The position numbers and the translations under genes are program-made. 64,000 bases of DNA from Candidatus Omnitrophota bacterium (GTDB lineage: Bacteria; Omnitrophota; Omnitrophia; Omnitrophales; Aquincolibacteriaceae), in NCBI GenBank assembly GCA_016930235.1, contig JAFGHI010000025.1, positions 16,437 to 80,436 of the forward strand, read 5' to 3'. This document shows positions 5,515 to 42,483 of the stretch, piece by piece. Position 1 is the first letter of the stretch, and each line of letters starts with the position of its first letter. The notes under the pieces are model-generated. The model was not told where the DNA came from. It did no database searches and was given only the letters and a program-made list of their open reading frames with translations.

Positions 5515-6327
5515 TCATGTCACCATAAATCCAAAGATAAAAATCGATGCCTGAACTGCGCGCACAAACGCTACGGACTCATGAATCTTAATCCTTTCCC
5601 GCATTTCAACCAAAGCGCTCACAACGGACCATATCGAAAAAACAATTGCGAGTTCAAAAAAGACCGGCTTTAAAAATGCCGGACTCATGAGAAACAAAAG
5701 GAAATCCTGAAACCCTTCAATATGGTGTATCGCCACCCCCAGACGCCCGACCTTTAAAAAAGGCAGTGAATATCCGTAAAGCTTCGAAGAAAAAGGCCAA
5801 AACAAAGGCACACCATAAGCGCTGAACATATCGAGAATCACGTGGGTGGAATAAGCCAAGAAGCTGAGAGCGAAGAGACGTAGCTCCTGTGACTTTTCTC
5901 GTATAAATTTTGAAATTCGAATCTCGAAACTCGAAACAAATCCGAATAAATCAAATCCTAATATCGAAACGGTTCTTTTGGAAGCAAGCCTATTCGCCAA
6001 ACTCCGGCATTTTTTATTATTGCCTTCTTCGGATTTCTGATTTGCTTCGAAATTCGGATTTCGGATTTCGGATTTAAGGCTCTTGACAAAGTGATATCCC
6101 CCTACAATCATGAAGGCTACGATGAAAGCAGCCGCCAGACTATGGGAAGGTCCTCGGTGAAACCGTGCTGCCTGTTGGATGAAAAGCCCGGGGAGAAAAT
6201 CAAAATCGGCTAGAGCGGCGAGCAGGACAAAAAAGAGAAGGTAGGGCCATCTCGTTTTCCGGTCCTTTTGTTTTGCAAAACAATAAACCGAATAACCCGC
6301 AAACGAATGTATCACCGGTAATGGCAT
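5515..6327 (-). CDS. DUF457/YdjM-type membrane-bound metal-dependent hydrolase carrying an in-frame ~190-nt repeat-element insertion
   Basis: HRGPSHSL and YSTHVILDMFSAYGVPLFWP match the YdjM motifs HRGFTHSL and YLSHILADM..GVPLLWP. The protein is 270 aa versus about 190 aa expected for the family. The extra ~63 residues (EIRNPNFEANQ...FIREKSQE) are encoded exactly by the family-1 repeat at 5883-6075. Confidence 0.7.
   Translation of the reverse strand: MPLPVIHSFAGYSVYCFAKQKDRKTRWPYLLFFVLLAALADFDFLPGLFIQQAARFHRGPSHSLAAAFIVAFMIVGGYHFVKSLKSEIRNPNFEANQKSEEGNNKKCRSLANRLASKRTVSILGFDLFGFVSSFEIRISKFIREKSQELRLFALSFLAYSTHVILDMFSAYGVPLFWPFSSKLYGYSLPFLKVGRLGVAIHHIEGFQDFLLFLMSPAFLKPVFFELAIVFSIWSVVSALVEMRERIKIHESVAFVRAVQASIFIFGFMVT
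5883..6075. mobile_element. Family-1 inverted-repeat miniature element, copy A, inserted in-frame inside the DUF457 gene
   Basis: Left arm gaaattcgaatctcgaaactcgaaacaaatccgaata... and right arm ...cttcgaaattcggatttcggatttcggattt are inverted copies of the cgaaat/tcggattt heptamer arrays seen at 6985, 8212, 10845 and 41617. Confidence 0.6.
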
Positions 6328-6333
6328 AGCGCA

Positions 6334-6792
6334 TCATACCCCCCGAAAAGGTTCGTGAGACGATGAACTCGTCCCGCTCAGAACCGGTGATTCGGAGAAA
6401 CGGCGAGACGGCGATTTAATGACCCACTTATCCGCACTTTCTATCATCATGACAATTTGACCCATGATACGATCCGTTTCCTCTTCAAGATGTTCTGCCT
6501 CTTCCTTTGTAATATAATTACATCTCCTTGCGATTTCAGACCATACTTGTGTTTCGCAAGCTTCTGTCTCAGCATCGCTGAGCTTACTTATGAATGCCGC
6601 TTTATACCGGCGCTTCCGCCAAGCTTCTGCCAAGTTTGAACAAACCGACCTCGAAGACCTTTTCATTTGATCCGTCAAAGAATATTTTTCCTCACTCGGA
6701 AATCTCTTCGTTATTCGAAATATTTCCATTGCCATATTCATTGCACGATCATAAACATTAAGCTCTTTATAACTCGATATTATCTTCCCCAT
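6334..6792 (-). CDS. Four-helix-bundle protein (TIGR02436, '23S rRNA intervening-sequence protein' family), copy 1
   Basis: LTDQMKRSSRSVCSNLAEAW matches the family core QLxRAAxSIxxNIAEG, and ETEACETQVWSEIARRCNYI matches the C-terminal helix. About 30 aa C-terminal extension. Its stop is 6 nt from the DUF457 start. Confidence 0.8.
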   Translation of the reverse strand: MGKIISSYKELNVYDRAMNMAMEIFRITKRFPSEEKYSLTDQMKRSSRSVCSNLAEAWRKRRYKAAFISKLSDAETEACETQVWSEIARRCNYITKEEAEHLEEETDRIMGQIVMMIESADKWVIKSPSRRFSESPVLSGTSSSSHEPFRGV

Positions 6793-6799
6793 CTCTTTT

Positions 6800-6960
6800 C
6801 CCGTTGCGCCGCTTCTCCGTCTCTCCGGCTCACCCGCTCTCGTCTCTCGCCCCTTGCCCCTGCTCTTTCACCGGTTCTTCGTTTCGCCTACCCCCGTCTC
6901 GTGTCTCTCGCCCCTTGCACCTGCTCTTGCCCCTGCCCCCTTAGGGAATCATTTCTTGAG
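6800..6960. repeat. CT-rich imperfect tandem direct repeat, two copies about 58 bp apart, core ctctcgccccttgc(c/a)cctgctctt
   Basis: Read directly: ccgctctcgtctctcgccccttgcccctgctctt at about 6832-6866 and ccgtctcgtgtctctcgccccttgcacctgctctt at about 6890-6925. Confidence 0.6.
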
Positions 6961-6984
6961 AACTAAGAACACGACCTCTTATAA

Positions 6985-7170
6985 ATCCGAATCCCGAAAT
7001 CCTAAGCACGAAACAAATTCGAATATCGAAATTCAAACAAAACCAAACTCTTCATTATCTTAAACACACATTGCATTTCTTTGCTTTTTTCTTTGCCGCA
7101 ATGTTTTATATTTATCTTTCTTATTTCTGATTTCGATATTGCTTCGGATTTCGATATTCGTATTTCGAAT
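6985..7170. mobile_element. Family-1 miniature element, copy B (arms plus about 90-bp spacer; internal-deletion derivative)
   Basis: Left arm atccgaatcccgaaatcctaagcacgaaacaaattcgaatatcgaaattcaaacaaaacc and right arm ttatttctgatttcgatattgcttcggatttcgatattcgtatttcgaattt. The spacer reverse complement reads ttgcggcaaagaaaaaagcaaag..., a degraded 4HB start (MAA.KK..). The right end abuts the BY-kinase stop codon at 7171. Confidence 0.6.
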
Positions 7171-8157
7171 TTACAGCCTTTGTTCCGTGTTCTTAGTCCT
7201 TTCTTTCTTCAGCACTGCCTTTTCCCACCAGCCCTGGAACCGCTCTTCCATATCCTTCAAATTAAAGCCGGCCCGCTTAAAATGATAATGAGCACGGTTG
7301 CGGCCCTCATCACTATATTCATCGTAATAGTTGTAATAGCGGTAGTCGGGCGATGAAAACTCCACATTGGTAAGAACATAACCAAGCATCTTGGCCCCGG
7401 CCTGTTTGAATAAAACCTGGGCATGAGAAATGACACTCTTGGGCGTCCTTCCGACCTGGATCACGAATAAAACACCATCCACCTCTTTGCCCAAGATTCC
7501 GGCATCCGCCACGGACATGATCGGAGGCGAATCAATGATGATGTAATCAAAGTGATGACGAAGTTCCCGTATGAAATACTGCAGCTTTGAAGAGCTCACA
7601 AGTTCGGCGGATTTCCGGGTCGCTTCCCCTCTCGGGATAATCACAAGATTCTTTAAGGAATTCTTGCACATAACCTGCTTTGGATTCAAATCCTCACGAA
7701 GCAGCTCAGTCAGTCCCTTCTTCTTGTCACCAAAACCCATATAATCGGAAATGTTCCCGCGTCTCAAGTCGGCATCAATCAAGGCCACTCGCGCTTCGCC
7801 GTTCTCGGCCAGAGAAAGAGCCAAGTTTGTCGCGGTCACCGTCTTCCCCTCTGAGTGAATGGAACTGGAAACGAGAATCACTTGTGCCTGCTGTTTCGTC
7901 AGCTGCGCCTTCAAGGAGGTGCGAAACATCCTGTATTGCTCGGCCAGCATGGAGTCCGGAAACCTTAGCATGATCAACCGACTGTCCGGGTTTGTATTTT
8001 TAATTGTCGTAATCCCACGCTCAAAAGATGAAACATTGTCAACGGCTTCATCTTCATGTGCCGGAAGTCGCAACCCCGGACTGCCATCAGAACCAGCGGC
8101 TTTCGCCTGGTCCCTTTCCTCTTGTAGTTTTTCAAGTGCTTTCGTGTATTTACTCAT
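7171..8157 (-). CDS. BY-family protein tyrosine kinase (CpsD/EpsG-like cytoplasmic ATPase, separate from the co-polymerase)
   Basis: Walker A HSEGKT, Walker A' ALIDADLRRG, Walker B DYIIIDSPP, and a C-terminal tyrosine cluster YRYYNYYDEY. 328 aa. Confidence 0.85.
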   Translation of the reverse strand: MSKYTKALEKLQEERDQAKAAGSDGSPGLRLPAHEDEAVDNVSSFERGITTIKNTNPDSRLIMLRFPDSMLAEQYRMFRTSLKAQLTKQQAQVILVSSSIHSEGKTVTATNLALSLAENGEARVALIDADLRRGNISDYMGFGDKKKGLTELLREDLNPKQVMCKNSLKNLVIIPRGEATRKSAELVSSSKLQYFIRELRHHFDYIIIDSPPIMSVADAGILGKEVDGVLFVIQVGRTPKSVISHAQVLFKQAGAKMLGYVLTNVEFSSPDYRYYNYYDEYSDEGRNRAHYHFKRAGFNLKDMEERFQGWWEKAVLKKERTKNTEQRL

Positions 8158-8211
8158 TTTGGTATGTCTCCTTTATTCCTTTATGATAACTATTTGCTAT
8201 AACTAAACTCG

Positions 8212-8748
8212 TTAAATACGAATCTCGAAACTCGAAATCCGAAACAAATTCGAATATCGAAATACAAATAAAACAAATAACACTAAAACAATACTCGCTT
8301 GTTCCTTCAGATTGACTTTCGTACAATAGAACCGAAAATGTTCATCAATTCCGTCGATTCTTGAATCAATGACTGCACTTCTTTTTCTAAACCGTTCGTA
8401 CAAACGCCCTCCAAAAGTCGAAGCCAATAACGGCTTTCTTTTGCCTCTTTCCTGCAGATCGTGATACGCATGCCAAAATCTTTTTTCCCTAACGACTCGT
8501 TGGCTTCGATATAGTTTGCGCCAACAGAGCCGGAGGCCCTCAATAACTGTCGCATATCATCCTGCACAATCCAGGACTTGTTCGCCTTCGATAATAGATC
8601 GCGCACTTGTACGGCAAATTTATAAGTCCGTTCCTCTAAATCGTATTTCTTTTCTTTTTTATCCGCTGCCATAACGATTTCGTTTTCTCTTTCTTATTTC
8701 GAATTTCGAAATTCCTTCGGATTTCGTGATTCGGATTTCGTATTTTCT
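8212..8748. mobile_element. Family-1 composite element, copy C: inverted heptamer-repeat arms flanking an intact four-helix-bundle gene
   Basis: Left arm 8212-8285 (cgaatctcgaaactcgaaatccgaaacaaattcgaatatcgaaatacaaataaaac) and right arm 8690-8748 (ttatttcgaatttcgaaattccttcggatttcgtgattcggatttcg) are inverted relative to each other and enclose ORF 8307..8672. Confidence 0.6.
8307..8672 (-). CDS. Four-helix-bundle protein (TIGR02436 family), copy 2, carried inside the family-1 element
   Basis: 121 aa. DDMRQLLRASGSVGANYIEANE and KDFGMRITICRKEAKESRYWLRLL match the family's two conserved helices. Confidence 0.85.
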   Translation of the reverse strand: MAADKKEKKYDLEERTYKFAVQVRDLLSKANKSWIVQDDMRQLLRASGSVGANYIEANESLGKKDFGMRITICRKEAKESRYWLRLLEGVCTNGLEKEVQSLIQESTELMNIFGSIVRKSI

Positions 8749-8767
8749 GCTGTTGCGCCTACTTCGG

Positions 8768-9586
8768 TTATCCGTGTCGAATCGTCGTCATGGCATCGCG
8801 TACGATCGCCTCATCGATTTTCTTGGTTTCGGCGATATAGCCCGCCAGGAGCGAATGATCACACAGATTATTAATCACTCGCGGGATCCCTTTGGTGAAT
8901 TCATAAATCAATCGATAAGATCCTTCCGGAAAAAGCCCCGAATAATCTTCGCCGTTGAGCTTGGCATGGTTTAAGCGATGGACGATGTAATTCTTCGTGT
9001 CTTCCGGACTTAACGCATTCAGATGATACTGAATCGATATCCTTTGTTTTAACTGGGCCAAACTCGACAACTCAAGCTTTCTTCGCAGTTCCGGCTGGCC
9101 CAACAAGATAATTTGGATCAATTTCTCCTTTTCGGTCTCTAAGTTTGAGAGCATTCTTACCTCTTCGAGGCAGGCCGGGCTCAGGTTCTGTGCTTCGTCG
9201 ATCATGAGAACCACATTCTGGTCGGAAGCCATCTGCTCTAAAAGATAATTATTGAGCTGAATCAGTAACTTATCTTTTGAACCATTCCGGTAATGGATGC
9301 CCAAATCTTCCATGATGAGCGTCAGAATACCTTTCGGACTTATCGTCGTATTGGTCACCAGCGCTGTTTTTACATCGCGGTCCAACTTCCGTAAAAGCGT
9401 CCGTGCAATGGTTGTTTTACCGGCACCCACTTCGCCGGTAATCACCACAAAACCCTTTCGCTGCCGAATCGCAAAGAGAAGCGCATCCAGGGCCGTTTTA
9501 TGTCCCAAGGATTCAAAGAAAAAACCTGAATCGGGCGTCTGGTTGAATGGATTTTCCTTAAATCCAAAAAATTTGTTATACACCAC
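8768..9586 (-). CDS. ExeA-like AAA ATPase (putative secretion ATPase of the EPS/PEP-CTERM locus type)
   Basis: 272 aa. P-loop VITGEVGAGKTTIARTLL, and DEAQNL as the Walker B region. Its position between the co-polymerase and the BY-kinase matches the known PEP-CTERM-locus arrangement. Confidence 0.75.
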   Translation of the reverse strand: MVYNKFFGFKENPFNQTPDSGFFFESLGHKTALDALLFAIRQRKGFVVITGEVGAGKTTIARTLLRKLDRDVKTALVTNTTISPKGILTLIMEDLGIHYRNGSKDKLLIQLNNYLLEQMASDQNVVLMIDEAQNLSPACLEEVRMLSNLETEKEKLIQIILLGQPELRRKLELSSLAQLKQRISIQYHLNALSPEDTKNYIVHRLNHAKLNGEDYSGLFPEGSYRLIYEFTKGIPRVINNLCDHSLLAGYIAETKKIDEAIVRDAMTTIRHG

Positions 9587-10790
9587 TTCCGGCCTTTAAC
9601 CTTTCTCCGAGAATCAGTTCCTCGGGACGAATCGTTGCGATCGCTCCGAAAATCGGAAGATCGAGTAGATTTCTCGCCTCTTCCAGATTCCGGATCGAGT
9701 TATCGCTCAGTTCGATCAGGTAAATGATGATGAGCCCCAAGGCCACTCCGACAATCAAGCCGCCGATAAAAAAGAGTGTCTTATTGGGTTTGACGGGCTC
9801 GAGCGGCAGCCTCGCCGGTTCCAAAATCCTGAATTTTGTCCCGCTTTCCGAATCTTCCAGCGTCTGGGACATTTTTGCCGTCTCCAGTTTCTGTAAAAGC
9901 CTTTGATAGATCTCGGCATTGACCGCATAATTTCTCTGCAGTTTCGCCAATTGCTGTTCCTGATAGGGCACGCTCGAGACCATTTTAGCGTATTGTTCGG
10001 GCTTGATTTCCAAGCCTTGGACTTCAGCCTGCGCCAAGAAAGCATCGCGCTGCTGTTCCAACTGGCCGATCATATTACGGACCTGAATCACACGCGGATG
10101 GGCCTCGGTGTTATCCACCAGCAGCTGATTCAATTCCATTTTTAAAGCCACAAGCTGTTCGTTCAGTCTCGTCGCAATCGGCAGCGAGGACATATACACC
10201 TCACGAAACTCCCGGAGGGCATTTTCGGATTCCTCAAGCTTCACCCGGTAAGTTTCGAGTTGATCGTCAATGAAACGAATCGCGCTGTTTGCTTCAAGAT
10301 CCGCAGAGGTAATATTCCCCCCAATAATGATGTCGGCCAGCGTCTTCACAATCAGTTGGGCCTTTTTCGGGTCCGGGCCCTCGTAGGAGATCGTAATCAT
10401 GTCCGCCCCGCGGAGTTTGATATCAATCTTCTTTCTAAGATTCCGAATAAGCCGATCCCTCTGGATGGGCGTAATTGCCTTCTTATCCAACACTAATTTC
10501 TCAATCAGCAAAGTCAGCCGCTCCCAAGATAAAAGTTCCTCCCGAAGCGTACTCATCCTTGCCCTCATCGAGGGTGAAATCGCAAGCCCGCGAATCAAAG
10601 GGTTCAAAATAGTCTCGCTTTCAACCAGGAGGACGGTCTCAGCCCTATAAATTTTGGGCAGCGTAAAAGCCATCAAAAGCGCAATGACGACCGATACAAT
10701 CAGGGCACCAAAAAACCACCCTTTATGCCGGACCCCCATGTAGTAATATTCCCTCAATCTTAATGTTTGTGTCATGTTGTTTAGATTCAT
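9576..10790 (-). CDS. Polysaccharide co-polymerase (Wzz/chain-length determinant, PCP family)
   Basis: 404 aa. N-terminal TM followed by the Wzz motif (PKIYRAETVLLVE), a long coiled-coil periplasmic region, and a C-terminal TM LFFIGGLIVGVALGLIIIYLIE. Confidence 0.8.
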   Translation of the reverse strand: MNLNNMTQTLRLREYYYMGVRHKGWFFGALIVSVVIALLMAFTLPKIYRAETVLLVESETILNPLIRGLAISPSMRARMSTLREELLSWERLTLLIEKLVLDKKAITPIQRDRLIRNLRKKIDIKLRGADMITISYEGPDPKKAQLIVKTLADIIIGGNITSADLEANSAIRFIDDQLETYRVKLEESENALREFREVYMSSLPIATRLNEQLVALKMELNQLLVDNTEAHPRVIQVRNMIGQLEQQRDAFLAQAEVQGLEIKPEQYAKMVSSVPYQEQQLAKLQRNYAVNAEIYQRLLQKLETAKMSQTLEDSESGTKFRILEPARLPLEPVKPNKTLFFIGGLIVGVALGLIIIYLIELSDNSIRNLEEARNLLDLPIFGAIATIRPEELILGERLKAGSGV

Positions 10791-10844
10791 GTGTTATCTA
10801 TCTCCTTAATTATGATTTCATATATTCATAAAAACTAAGCTTAA

Positions 10845-11040
10845 TAAATTCGAAATGCGAAACACGAAATCCGAAACAAATTCAAATATCGAAATTCAAA
10901 TAAAACCGAACGCTTCATTTCCTTAAATACAAACCGTATTACCTTCTTTTTTATCCACCGCCATATCGTTTTATACTTTTTCTTTTTTATTTCTAATTTC
11001 GAATTTGTTTCGTGCTTCGAAATTCGAATTTCGGATTTTC
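10845..11040. mobile_element. Family-1 miniature element, copy D (deletion derivative), directly adjacent to 4HB copy 3
   Basis: Arms cgaaatgcgaaacacgaaatccgaaacaaattcaaatatcgaaattcaaataaaacc and ttatttctaatttcgaatttgtttcgtgcttcgaaattcgaatttcggatttt. The spacer reverse complement reads ATG GCG GTG GAT AAA AAA GAA GGT... (MAVDKKEG), almost identical to the MAADKKEKK start of 4HB copy 2, then stops. Confidence 0.6.
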
Positions 11041-11064
11041 ATGAACGCGGTACGCGGTCCATGC

Positions 11065-11502
11065 TCAGTGTGTCAACGCACCCTTCCAATCCGAGTGGAG
11101 CTGGGAATAAATACAATAGTTTTCATGTAAACGATGAATGCGCTTGGACAATTCCTGATAGCCTCGAGTAAGCTGATCATATTCGGTTTTTTCGATATAC
11201 CCGCAGTTCAAGGCCAGACCTAAGCACACCAGAACATGATTGGCCGCACCGCACGCGTCTCTTAAATGTCTGCGAAGGACGGTTTCACGACGTCTTTTCG
11301 CCCAGCCTTCGGCGATATGGGCAGAAACACGCCTCGAACTATTCAAAGTTTGACTAAAAAGCGTGTGCCTTTCATAGTCTGGAAATTTCCGGACACATTT
11401 AAATATCTGGCCGGCCAAAGTCATACTGATTTTGTAACTTTCCAAATCCTCGAACCCGCCGATTTCCATCTCCGATGTCAATTCACTTTCACTCGTCATC
11501 AT
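11065..11502 (-). CDS. Four-helix-bundle protein (TIGR02436 family), copy 3
   Basis: 145 aa. FSQTLNSSRRVSAHIAEGW and LRDACGAANHVLVCLGLALNCGYI match the family helices. It is more divergent than copies 1 and 2. Confidence 0.75.
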   Translation of the reverse strand: MMTSESELTSEMEIGGFEDLESYKISMTLAGQIFKCVRKFPDYERHTLFSQTLNSSRRVSAHIAEGWAKRRRETVLRRHLRDACGAANHVLVCLGLALNCGYIEKTEYDQLTRGYQELSKRIHRLHENYCIYSQLHSDWKGALTH

Positions 11503-11719
11503 TTCGATTACCCCTCAATCATGTTCCAAAGATTTAAGACAACCCGAAAGACCAGCTTGCCGCCCATTACAATAAGTGGCCAGATGATGAGATTACTATA
11601 GGCTCTCAAGATTGCTTCCCGGCCTCTCTTTAAACTATTCTTCTTTTTCATCGTCTTCCTTTTTCTTCTTGATTCGTTATTAGGCGCTGAAATTCTCTTC
11701 TGCTCCGGAAACGCATCAA

Positions 11720-17536: not shown

Positions 17537-17812
17537 GATTTGCGATTTTGGATTTTAGATTTTGGATTGCGGATTGCCCGTTTGGGCGAAAATCCGAAGT
17601 ATGAAGTTCGAGGTACGAAGTAAGAGGTAAGATGTATGAAATTTCGGATTTGGGATTTTGGATTTTAGATTTTGGATTGCGGATTGCCCGTTTGGGCGAA
17701 TTTAACCCCTCACCCTTTCCCTCTCCCCTTTGGGGAGAGGGCAGAGATGAGGTGATAAATTTGCCTAAGCGTATAATCGAAAATCCAAAATCCGCACTCC
17801 CAAATCTAAAAT
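17537..17812. repeat. Family-2 miniature element, copy E: left arm duplicated in tandem, with internal palindrome ccctctcccctttggggagaggg
   Basis: gattttggattttagattttggattgcggattgcccgtttgggcgaa occurs twice (17547-17592 and 17655-17700). The right arm at about 17776-17812 (tcgaaaatccaaaatccgcactcccaaatctaaaatgg) is inverted. A segment gaagtatgaagttcgaggtacgaagtaagaggtaag is shared with 19888-20008. Confidence 0.6.
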
Positions 17813-22659: not shown

Positions 22660-22901
22660 ATTTTAGATTTCGGATTGCGGAATGCGGATTGCCCGCTTAG
22701 GCAAAAATCCGAAGTATGAAGTATGAAATGTGAAAAAAGATGAATCGTAAGTAAATGAGTCCATAGCGACTATTTTTTCGCTTTTCTCTCCTACCGCGCA
22801 CATCATATTTTTTACGTCATATTCCATGCGTCCTTCATACTTCATACCTCGTACCTCATATTTCTTTATTCAATCCAAAATCCGAATTCCAAAATCCAAA
22901 A
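22660..22901. mobile_element. Family-2 miniature inverted-repeat element, copy I, between priA and the UDG gene
   Basis: The left arm ttttagatttcggattgcggaatgcggattgcccgcttaggcaaaaatccgaagtatgaagtatg and the right arm catacttcatacctcgtacctcata...caatccaaaatccgaattccaaaatccaaaat are inverted copies. The right end abuts the UDG stop codon (22902). The 60-aa ORF inside it is probably spurious. Confidence 0.55.
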
Positions 22902-41576: not shown

Positions 41577-41616
41577 AGCGTCTTCCTTTTATTGAGCCCG
41601 CCATTTTGGCGGATGT

Positions 41617-41782
41617 AAAATCCGAATCTCGAATTTCGAAGCACAAAACAAATACGAATATCGAAATTCAAATAAGGCAAACAAAAGATCTGTGTCCTAT
41701 GCCCTTCGTACCTTGTTTTTTTCTTTCCTATTTCGAATTTTGATATTTCTTCGAATTTCGGGATTCGCGCTTCGGATTTCCC
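41617..41782. mobile_element. Family-1 miniature element, copy G (35 kb away from the other copies)
   Basis: Arms aaaatccgaatctcgaatttcgaagcacaaaacaaatacgaatatcgaaattcaaataagg and ctatttcgaattttgatatttcttcgaatttcgggattcgcgcttcggattt. It abuts the methyltransferase stop at 41788. Confidence 0.55.
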
Positions 41783-41787
41783 TGTGC

Positions 41788-42483
41788 TTACGCTTGTTTG
41801 TTGCAAAAAAAGCAAAAGTGATAGGAAAAACGAGTCGGGATAAGCCAATCCTTGATCTGCTGTTTCCAGGATTGGCGAGCTATACCGTTATATTTTTCCG
41901 TTTTCATGACTTTAAGTCCGTGGTCTTCTAAGATTTGCTTCCACTCGCCCCAGCTGGCAAACTTTTCATGGGTTTGGTTCCTGGCGAATCGATCTCCTTT
42001 CAACAAAACCGAAAGGATGTCCTTATACCAAAAGATATTCGGAACCAGGATCAAAAAAAGGGCATCCCTTTTAGCTACCCTTTTCATCTCACGGATCGCT
42101 TCACCGATATCGAGAAAATGCTCCAGGCTGCCTAAACAAGTCACGCTGTCAAAAATCGCATCACCAAACGGCAATTTTTCCGCAACCGAATGAAGATAAG
42201 ACGCTTCCGGACATTCCTTCCTGGCAATTTCAAGAGCCCTTTCAGAAATATCAACACCCGTAAGGGATACCTTTCCTTGTACAACATGCCGGATATGTTT
42301 TAAAAAATAACCGCCGCCGCAAGCAATGTCCAAGACGGATTTCACCGATGGCTGATATTGAATCAGGCGGTTAGCAAACCACGCATAGGCCCGGTCTTCG
42401 TCCCGAATGGGTTCTTTCTCGTACAGCTGATTGTATTCCGCTTGGATATCTTTAAACTCTTTTTGATCGATTTCAACACTCAT
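41788..42483 (-). CDS. Class I SAM-dependent methyltransferase
   Basis: VLDIACGGGYF (motif I) and DAIFDSVTCL. Confidence 0.8.
   Translation of the reverse strand: MSVEIDQKEFKDIQAEYNQLYEKEPIRDEDRAYAWFANRLIQYQPSVKSVLDIACGGGYFLKHIRHVVQGKVSLTGVDISERALEIARKECPEASYLHSVAEKLPFGDAIFDSVTCLGSLEHFLDIGEAIREMKRVAKRDALFLILVPNIFWYKDILSVLLKGDRFARNQTHEKFASWGEWKQILEDHGLKVMKTEKYNGIARQSWKQQIKDWLIPTRFSYHFCFFCNKQA

Follow-up and report, generated by a model that had tools for sequence, protein, structure and literature searches.

In-frame insertion of a family-1 palindromic repeat in a ydjM (DUF457) gene of a Candidatus Omnitrophota bacterium

Described palindromic elements and the ydjM locus

In behaviour, the closest described elements to the repeat considered here are the Rickettsia palindromic elements (RPEs), palindromes of ~150 nt that, in the account of Ogata et al. 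2000 given in PMC10969869, stand in frame and free of stop codons in unrelated genes, at positions judged compatible with the protein fold, and also occur in non-coding DNA. The DNA analyzed here is a stretch of 64,000 nt from a Candidatus Omnitrophota bacterium (assembly GCA_016930235.1, contig JAFGHI010000025.1, positions 16,437 to 80,436), referred to below as the window. It contains five copies (A-E) of a hairpin repeat, family 1, and one of them, copy D, lies inside a ydjM (DUF457) gene whose reading frame remains open across it. We consider it likely that this in-frame copy is tolerated and has passed a filter of selection, in a loop of the YdjM protein that is permissive and probably cytoplasmic, as with the RPEs.

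As far as that account describes the RPEs, family 1 shares with them a palindrome of ~150 nt, the in-frame insertion of a peptide in unrelated genes, and an occurrence in non-coding DNA. The comparison with the RPEs was one of behaviour only. Family 1 differs in being another sequence family with other hosts (Omnitrophota and many phyla), in its arms made of heptamer runs, in having a relative that carries a PF05635 gene, and in having a member that is an intervening sequence (IVS) of a ribosomal RNA (rRNA) gene. Its intragenic copies also look rare, with one among about 25 paired elements.

A second comparison is with the 23S rRNA IVSs of Leptospira and Coxiella, in which an S23p/PF05635 open reading frame (ORF) lies between inverted repeats and which are excised by RNase III (PMC4990558). 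Family 1 resembles them by its terminal inverted repeats, which form a long stem, and by an optional internal PF05635 ORF in the sense orientation, carried here by copy E; one of its relatives (locus L020) sits at a hairpin tip in 23S rRNA. Copy D, in contrast, lies in the coding region of an mRNA and has lost the ORF, and RNase III would there cut the messenger and not mature it. Rfam detects neither rRNA nor another of its families in the window.

[quoted passage not shown] Family 1 is likewise short, multi-copy (five in 64 kb) and bounded by terminal inverted repeats. Unlike classical MITEs, it shows no target-site duplication, its copy E encodes only a PF05635 protein with no transposase associated, and its arms are conserved across phyla. 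The PARCEL repeats (PMC2996958) were considered as well and rejected, as they are 25-residue tandem protein repeats.

The in-frame insertion of a palindrome is an already known kind of event, of which the ydjM case is a clear further example. To our knowledge, only for Rickettsia is it textbook matter that palindromic repeats colonise genes in frame. What is new is the element itself, with its heptamer arms, its descent from a PF05635 cassette, its identity with an rRNA IVS, its conservation across phyla and its recurrent in-frame copies in proteins unrelated to one another. No published description of it was found under PF05635, S23p or the EIRNPK/FRISDF peptides, within an incomplete literature coverage that leaves an earlier description possible.

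A family-1 hairpin within the ydjM reading frame

The gene, the extra codons and the parts of copy D are positioned as follows:

5515-6327, minus strand: ydjM gene, 270 aa (ORF list and PF04307 match)
5896-6081, minus strand: 62 extra codons S83-E144, without counterpart in all 16 aligned homologues
5905-6075, no strand assigned: family-1 hairpin core (AAAT...ATTT), 171 nt, exactly codons K85-F141 (from the sequence and the alignment with copies A, B and C)
5907-5948, plus strand: arm 1 of copy D, CGAAAT-type heptamers, the 3' arm in the ydjM mRNA, with a degenerate copy of the family 27-mer (nhmmer E 3.6e-8, 31.5 bits)
5949-6038, no strand assigned: spacer between the arms, encoding the least confidently modelled part of the loop (predicted local distance difference test, pLDDT, 42-55 over residues 100-130)
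6039-6077, minus strand: arm 2 of copy D, ATTTCG-type heptamers on the plus strand, the 5' arm in the mRNA, encoding KSEIRNPNFE (nhmmer E 5.5e-5)

The ydjM product matches PF04307 (YdjM inner-membrane protein, DUF457) with E 1.5e-19 and 70.6 bits (cutoff 29). The motifs HRGPSHSL (residues 57-64), YSTHVILDMF (159-168) and GVPLFWP (172-178), by which an earlier reading of this DNA from its letters alone (the sequence-only reading) had recognized a conserved DUF457 gene, are all found. Residues 6-230 of the product align to only 159 PF04307 positions (5-163), which implies roughly 65 surplus residues. A homologue search reports 25 other proteins of 158-232 aa, with 28-42% identity over their aligned parts, and the alignment used below comprises 17 sequences, the window protein and 16 homologues (28-42% identity, 174-232 aa). 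In the homologues, the helix following HRGxSHS is linked to the helix preceding SH..LD by a short basic stretch, such as LKKTSFFK, and the native loop at the insertion site amounts to about 4 residues. The spacing between H62 and H162 reaches 100 residues in the window protein versus 38 in the homologues P0003 and P0004, and the extra segment therefore counts 62 residues instead of the ~63 first given, its place between the motifs being correct. None of the 16 homologues has these residues, which sets the boundaries of the insertion at S83 and E144, and none (0/16) has a loop of comparable length or sequence. The repeat family is found in addition between genes of this window and in 33 other genomes, and the segment is a repeat insertion, not a native loop.

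The family-1 core accounts for 57 of the 62 extra codons (85-141). The five others, S83 and L84 on one side and I142, R143 and E144 on the other, lie between the core and homologous YdjM sequence and are not clearly part of the element, so that an exact encoding of the extra residues by the repeat, as proposed from the letters, holds for the core and is slightly overstated for the whole segment. The gene sequence abutting the insert reads ...CACTTTGTCAAG on one side and AAGTCACAGGAG... on the other. The 7 nt to the left of the core, CTCGTAT, resemble CTCTTAT in copy A and CTCGTT in copy E, and in this genome are possibly part of the element. Of the two ends originally placed at 5883 and 6075, the right one is exact and the left one is 13-22 nt too far left. 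The target-site duplication to be looked for at these ends is not seen: neither 5896/6082 nor 5905/6076 bears a direct repeat, positions 5890-5901 and 6076-6087 compared by eye do not match at the 186-nt spacing, and copies A-E share no flanks, with no target-site duplication at the other copies either. Copy D is open in one of its six frames, which is the frame used by ydjM, and the gene is indeed open across the insertion as first reported.

Both arms of copy D match, in inverted orientation, a profile built from 37 family-1 arms, and a 43-nt inverted repeat with 72% complementarity lies at 5912-5954 and 6020-6062. Arm 2 contains an exact TTCGGATTTCGGATTTCGGATTT at 6053-6075; this word and its near-matches occur 8 times in the window and 0 times in shuffles. 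Copies A, B, C and E possess the conserved 27-mer AAACAAATNCRAATATCGAAATNCAAA, in place of which copy D has AAACAAATCCGAATAAATCAAATCCTAATATCGAAAC, a degenerate or rearranged core. The loss of the exact 27-mer makes copy D a less typical member of family 1 and leaves its membership unaffected. On the mRNA strand, the D hairpin has a minimum free energy of -45.7 kcal/mol (z = -2.65 against dinucleotide shuffles). The family-1 elements of the window are long imperfect hairpins with z from about -2.7 for copy D, the weakest, to -5.0, and the 216-nt region of D with its flanks (z about -1.2) is indistinguishable from shuffles. RNAalifold analysis of covariation in 22 arm pairs returns a poor consensus because the heptamer register varies between copies. 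Cognate arms pair slightly better than non-cognate ones (-40.4 versus -36.7 kcal/mol), a near equality that indicates no copy-specific compensation.

No terminator or promoter within the element stands above shuffles. Rfam reports no family at gathering score over the window and none at E<=1 over 5800-8800, and Pfam finds only YdjM in the protein, on which grounds an intron or an intein was rejected. A possible 15-nt tandem duplication inside copy D (5934-5963) is inseparable from the heptamer periodicity.

Probable tolerance of the insert and competing accounts

The host gene is well preserved. All 15 invariant columns of the alignment, among them H7, D41, D43, H57, H62, S63, H162, D166, W177, P178 and E225, are retained in the window protein on both sides of the insert. 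In-silico removal of S83-E144 yields a 208-aa protein that is collinear with PF04307 and scores 79.8 bits, the best of nine, above each of the eight homologues scored alike (50.8-74.5). Since the invariant residues are retained and the insert-deleted score tops the homologues, ydjM shows no sign of decay at the level of its sequence. NCBI annotates it as a normal protein, and a 100% identical database record (P0001, "metal-dependent hydrolase") comes from a Candidatus Omnitrophica metagenome-assembled genome (MAG); the identical protein is recorded in both NCBI and Logan.

Runs of the canonical heptamers, (AAATCCG)n and (CGGATTT)n, are free of stop codons in every frame, which confines the stop risk to variant heptamers and to the spacer. 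Among the 150 frames of about 25 paired elements, 15 (~10%) are stop-free; with a further factor of 1/3 for length, a random intragenic insertion would keep the ORF ~3% of the time. This low chance suggests a selective filter, short of proof. A homologue from another sample (P0002, 232 aa) possesses an insert of 27 aa, IVCRRGAPLCAPDLSNGRTHGSAPTLD, which begins at residue 82/83, within one codon of the site of the window insert. The DNA of that insert (L034 457-542, Logan SRR12113385) is in frame and forms a GC-rich palindrome unrelated to family 1, whose 37-nt arms show 78% complementarity. A permissive-site filter predicts such a case, in which distinct palindromes occupy a single codon of a gene of ~208 codons.

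Copies in other proteins were sought with a hidden Markov model (HMM) of the peptides encoded by copies D, B and C, which reports 190 proteins at E<=1e-3 among 1.84 billion representatives. Most of them are short spurious ORFs, and several are real proteins with an internal in-frame element. A 950-aa Ser/Thr kinase (P0171; L035 1866-2010, JGI 3300035183) exhibits, within its catalytic core, 48 residues in frame between HRDLKPANILL and DFG, the DNA of which is a clean hairpin. The adenylation (A) domains of Candidatus Deferrimicrobium nonribosomal peptide synthetases (NRPSs) carry the element in frame between their A2 and A3 motifs (L036 3870-4040, DATGXF010000354.1, P0027). Six NRPS A domains have it at one site (P0027, P0062, P0070, P0097 and P0124 among them), all open and with inserts 62-84% identical, while the domains themselves are 49-80% identical upstream of the element and 29-43% over the next 110 residues. 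As the inserts are open despite this low downstream identity, in-frame copies can persist through deep host divergence. Given this drop in identity, the NRPS element may mark the boundary of a recombination. Another internal in-frame copy of the family lies in a HEAT protein of 1930 aa, which comes from an Omnitrophica MAG. Among the about 25 paired elements, copy D alone lies in the middle of a long ORF, with 85 codons upstream and 129 downstream; at another locus (L023 4609-4746), a 614-codon ORF reads through a family hairpin, which provides its last ~45 residues and the stop region. A word-indexed protein search with the 62-aa insert alone returned no candidates, and the Protein Data Bank holds no solved relative of the family by sequence.

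The insert has a net charge of +5 and a maximum 19-residue Kyte-Doolittle value of 1.09, under the usual transmembrane threshold, and should therefore not form a new transmembrane helix. Its first half is hydrophilic and net-positive, the second half mildly hydrophobic. Two helices upstream lies the strongly basic loop KQKDRKTR, and by the positive-inside rule the insert-bearing loop would be on the same, cytoplasmic side. The AlphaFold (AF2) model of YdjM (pLDDT 77, predicted template modelling score 0.70) keeps the helical bundle and lengthens the two flanking helices (64-88 and 127-166) with insert residues, the rest of the insert forming a low-confidence disordered tip. Low confidence is limited to residues ~90-130, with 10-residue block means of 63, 55, 42 and 44 over residues 91-130 and values below 50 over residues 114-128.

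On the best-supported account, a non-autonomous family-1 hairpin copy inserted at the DNA level into the short basic loop between two ydjM transmembrane helices. The frame was kept because the canonical heptamers are stop-free and the core measures 171 nt, and ~62 residues were added that are predicted to extend the two flanking helices and to form a disordered tip. We infer that the loop is permissive and cytoplasmic and that the protein still works; copy D would have been retained since frame-preserving insertions survive selection, which purges those that break the frame. The hairpin is expected to form in the ydjM mRNA as well and, by analogy with rRNA IVSs and Correia elements, may serve there as an RNase III site that lowers expression without abolishing the gene. 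Of the two possibilities left by the sequence-only reading, a tolerated surface-loop insertion and a fresh pseudogene, the former is favoured by the 15 retained invariant residues, the 79.8-bit score, the ~3% chance of frame preservation, the palindrome of P0002 and the persistence of the NRPS copies.

Several points weigh against a tolerated, selection-filtered insertion. The family-1 arms are intrinsically stop-poor, and an open frame is thus not astronomically unlikely. The loop is probably cytoplasmic by the positive-inside rule only, and the AF2 input alignment is shallow, with its 17 sequences. The arms of the window copies are 74-88% identical and copy D, equally diverged, is no outlier, which does not fix its age. 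The databases searched contain no homologue more than 42% identical to the window YdjM, and hence provide no empty site, no dating and no dN/dS. Lastly, the D hairpin could, by analogy, render the ydjM mRNA an RNase III substrate.

This last point leads to an account at the RNA level, in which the AU-rich hairpin in the ydjM mRNA would be cut by RNase III, splitting or destabilising the polycistronic transcript of the exopolysaccharide (EPS) operon, coding compatibility being secondary. Such an effect can coexist with the tolerated insertion, and we hold it possible, if somewhat doubtful, as the principal explanation. The mRNA-strand hairpin at -45.7 kcal/mol is consistent with it, as are the true 23S rRNA insertion of a family member (L020), the cleavage by RNase III of rRNA IVS stems (PMC4990558) and of Correia elements in mRNAs (PMC10969869), and an orientation bias of the family relative to flanking genes (23/29, described below) to which copy D conforms. 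However, the D stem has the weakest z among the window copies and with its flanks falls to about -1.2, and the preservation of the frame is left unexplained.

Alternatively, the insertion may have inactivated ydjM, its ORF being open by luck and its 270-aa product misfolded or useless, in which case the gene would be a young, undecayed pseudogene. The ~10% of element frames that are open, the stop-free KSEIR frame of copies B and C, the length of the insert relative to a loop of ~4 residues and the pLDDT of 42-63 across it are compatible with this view. We nevertheless judge it unlikely: the joint chance of keeping the ORF is only ~3%, the host gene is undegenerated (79.8 bits, invariant residues kept), the NRPS copies have stayed in frame through deep divergence, and the unrelated palindrome at the same codon of P0002 fits a permissive-site filter and not random hits in dead genes.

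Two further accounts are excluded for practical purposes. A misjoining of a repeat copy into ydjM during MAG assembly, suggested by the metagenomic source and by the hazard that repeats represent for assembly, is very improbable given that the two flanks together make up a single gene, collinear and in one frame, that the copies (74-88% identical) are too diverged to collapse, and that the identical protein is recorded in NCBI and Logan. A native loop that merely resembles the repeats, or is their source, has only its low-complexity sequence in its favour and is extremely improbable, in view of the 16/16 homologues without the loop and of the element's presence between genes, in rRNA and in unrelated proteins across phyla.

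Family 1 in the window and in other genomes

Copies A, B, C and E are oriented like D on the plus strand. The other copies and the PF05635 genes of the window are the following:

6334-6792, minus strand: PF05635 gene (E 3.1e-32), whose end lies 6 nt upstream of the start codon of ydjM; part of the surroundings, outside the insertion
6979-7176, no strand assigned: miniature copy A, intergenic, abutting the stop codon of gene 7171-8157, with a remnant of the start of the intervening-sequence protein (IVP) gene
8205-8748, no strand assigned: full-length element E, family-1 arms flanking a 121-aa gene
8307-8672, minus strand: 23S rRNA-intervening-sequence protein gene (four-helix-bundle, PF05635), 121 aa, inside E (E 3.9e-11, 43.5 bits, cutoff 33.8)
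10842-11042, no strand assigned: miniature copy B, intergenic, keeping ~12 codons of the IVP gene start (MAVDKKEGNTVCI, then a stop codon)
11065-11502: third PF05635 gene
41614-41790, no strand assigned: miniature copy C, intergenic

The miniatures A and B align with the first ~12 codons of the PF05635 gene of copy E, B reading MAVDKKEGNTVCI before its stop and E reading MAADKKEKKYDLEE. To judge from these remnants, the miniatures are deletion derivatives of the gene-carrying PF05635 cassette. Copy D retains no confidently recognisable remnant of the PF05635 ORF.

The ydjM gene belongs to a minus-strand polysaccharide export and biosynthesis cluster, comprising Poly_export, GNVR, AAA_22, an AAA_31 ATPase, YdjM, LPG_synthase_TM, Polysacc_synt_3 and two GT2 genes. 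The three PF05635 genes, the hairpins A and B and the arms of E fill the intergenic gaps of this one EPS operon (6300-11520) and are oriented with it. An extra 12-nt inverted repeat brackets copy A, with ACTAAGAACACG at 6962-6973 and CGTGTTCTTAGT at 7186-7197, the right half being located in the last codons of gene 7171-8157, and copy A may have landed in a pre-existing hairpin. As a general target, a pre-existing hairpin was rejected, flank complementarity being strong only for L020, L030, L024, L031 and window copy A; that of copy D is not strong (-9.2 kcal/mol, rank 0.64). GC-rich inverted repeats suspected by eye around the PF05635 gene 6334-6792 were not confirmed at seed 8. Other repeat families, distinct from family 1 and made of GGATTGCGGATTGCCCGTTTGGGCGAAAATCCGAAGTATGAAG-type units, are located at 17560-17700 and 22660-22900, the latter as an inverted pair around a spacer.

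Outside the window, exact matches to the 27-mer are present in the 33 genomes mentioned above, which are species representatives from many phyla. The host groups include Dehalococcoidia, Planctomycetota, Verrucomicrobiota, Nitrospirota, Desulfobacterales, Calditrichota, Patescibacteria and Saganbacteria, and most matches are complete hairpins. The 27-mer is absent from 2.9 million viral contigs. In the Dehalococcoidia copies (L001, L008, L024, L025, L029 and L031), CCAAAT/ATTTGG and CTAAAT/ATTTAG heptamers replace CGAAAT/ATTTCG in both arms, and these copies often adjoin another repeat (GCGAAGCGAAGAATC...).

The copy of the patescibacterium Candidatus Chisholmbacteria (L020 1152-1311, MHCJ01000007.1) is a family-1-type hairpin without ORF inside the 23S rRNA gene. 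The cmscan alignment reports that its 160 nt replace a 6-nt hairpin loop near position 283 of the large-subunit model, and by this placement the family-1 hairpin is also a genuine 23S rRNA IVS. This location fits the PF05635 link, as in Leptospira and Coxiella the inverted repeats of the IVSs enclose such an ORF.

In 23/29 unambiguous cases, or 19/25 without the window copies, the flanking genes and the 27-mer are on opposite strands. The binomial estimate for 23/29 is about 0.002 two-sided, with crude gene calls (long ORFs) and some related loci. Copy D, the rRNA copy L020 and the PF05635 gene of copy E share the majority orientation. This bias is a lead only and hints at a transcript-level constraint.

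Beyond the ydjM locus, family 1 may represent an as yet undescribed, pan-bacterial class of IVS-like selfish elements, non-autonomous derivatives of an Avd-like four-helix-bundle (PF05635) cassette. Its heptamer-built arms, stop-free in every frame of either strand, would permit one element a life in rRNA, in spacers and within proteins (YdjM, the kinase core, NRPS A domains), and its transcribed-orientation bias would hint at an RNA-level step in spread or processing; we put this forward tentatively, as a possibility that is not the most probable outcome.

Three phenomena that are usually treated apart come together in family 1: the IVSs of rRNA, selfish DNA that codes for protein, and the multi-copy "four-helix-bundle" genes of PF05635, so far unexplained. 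For annotators, the "KSEIRNPK...FGFRISDF" segments in MAG proteins are repeat-derived. The YdjM loop, hit independently by two palindromes, provides a test case for the tolerance, and possibly the recruitment, of inserts. Rickettsia-like behaviour is met here in a phylum without cultivated members, and the repeat concerned is a true intervening sequence of rRNA as well.

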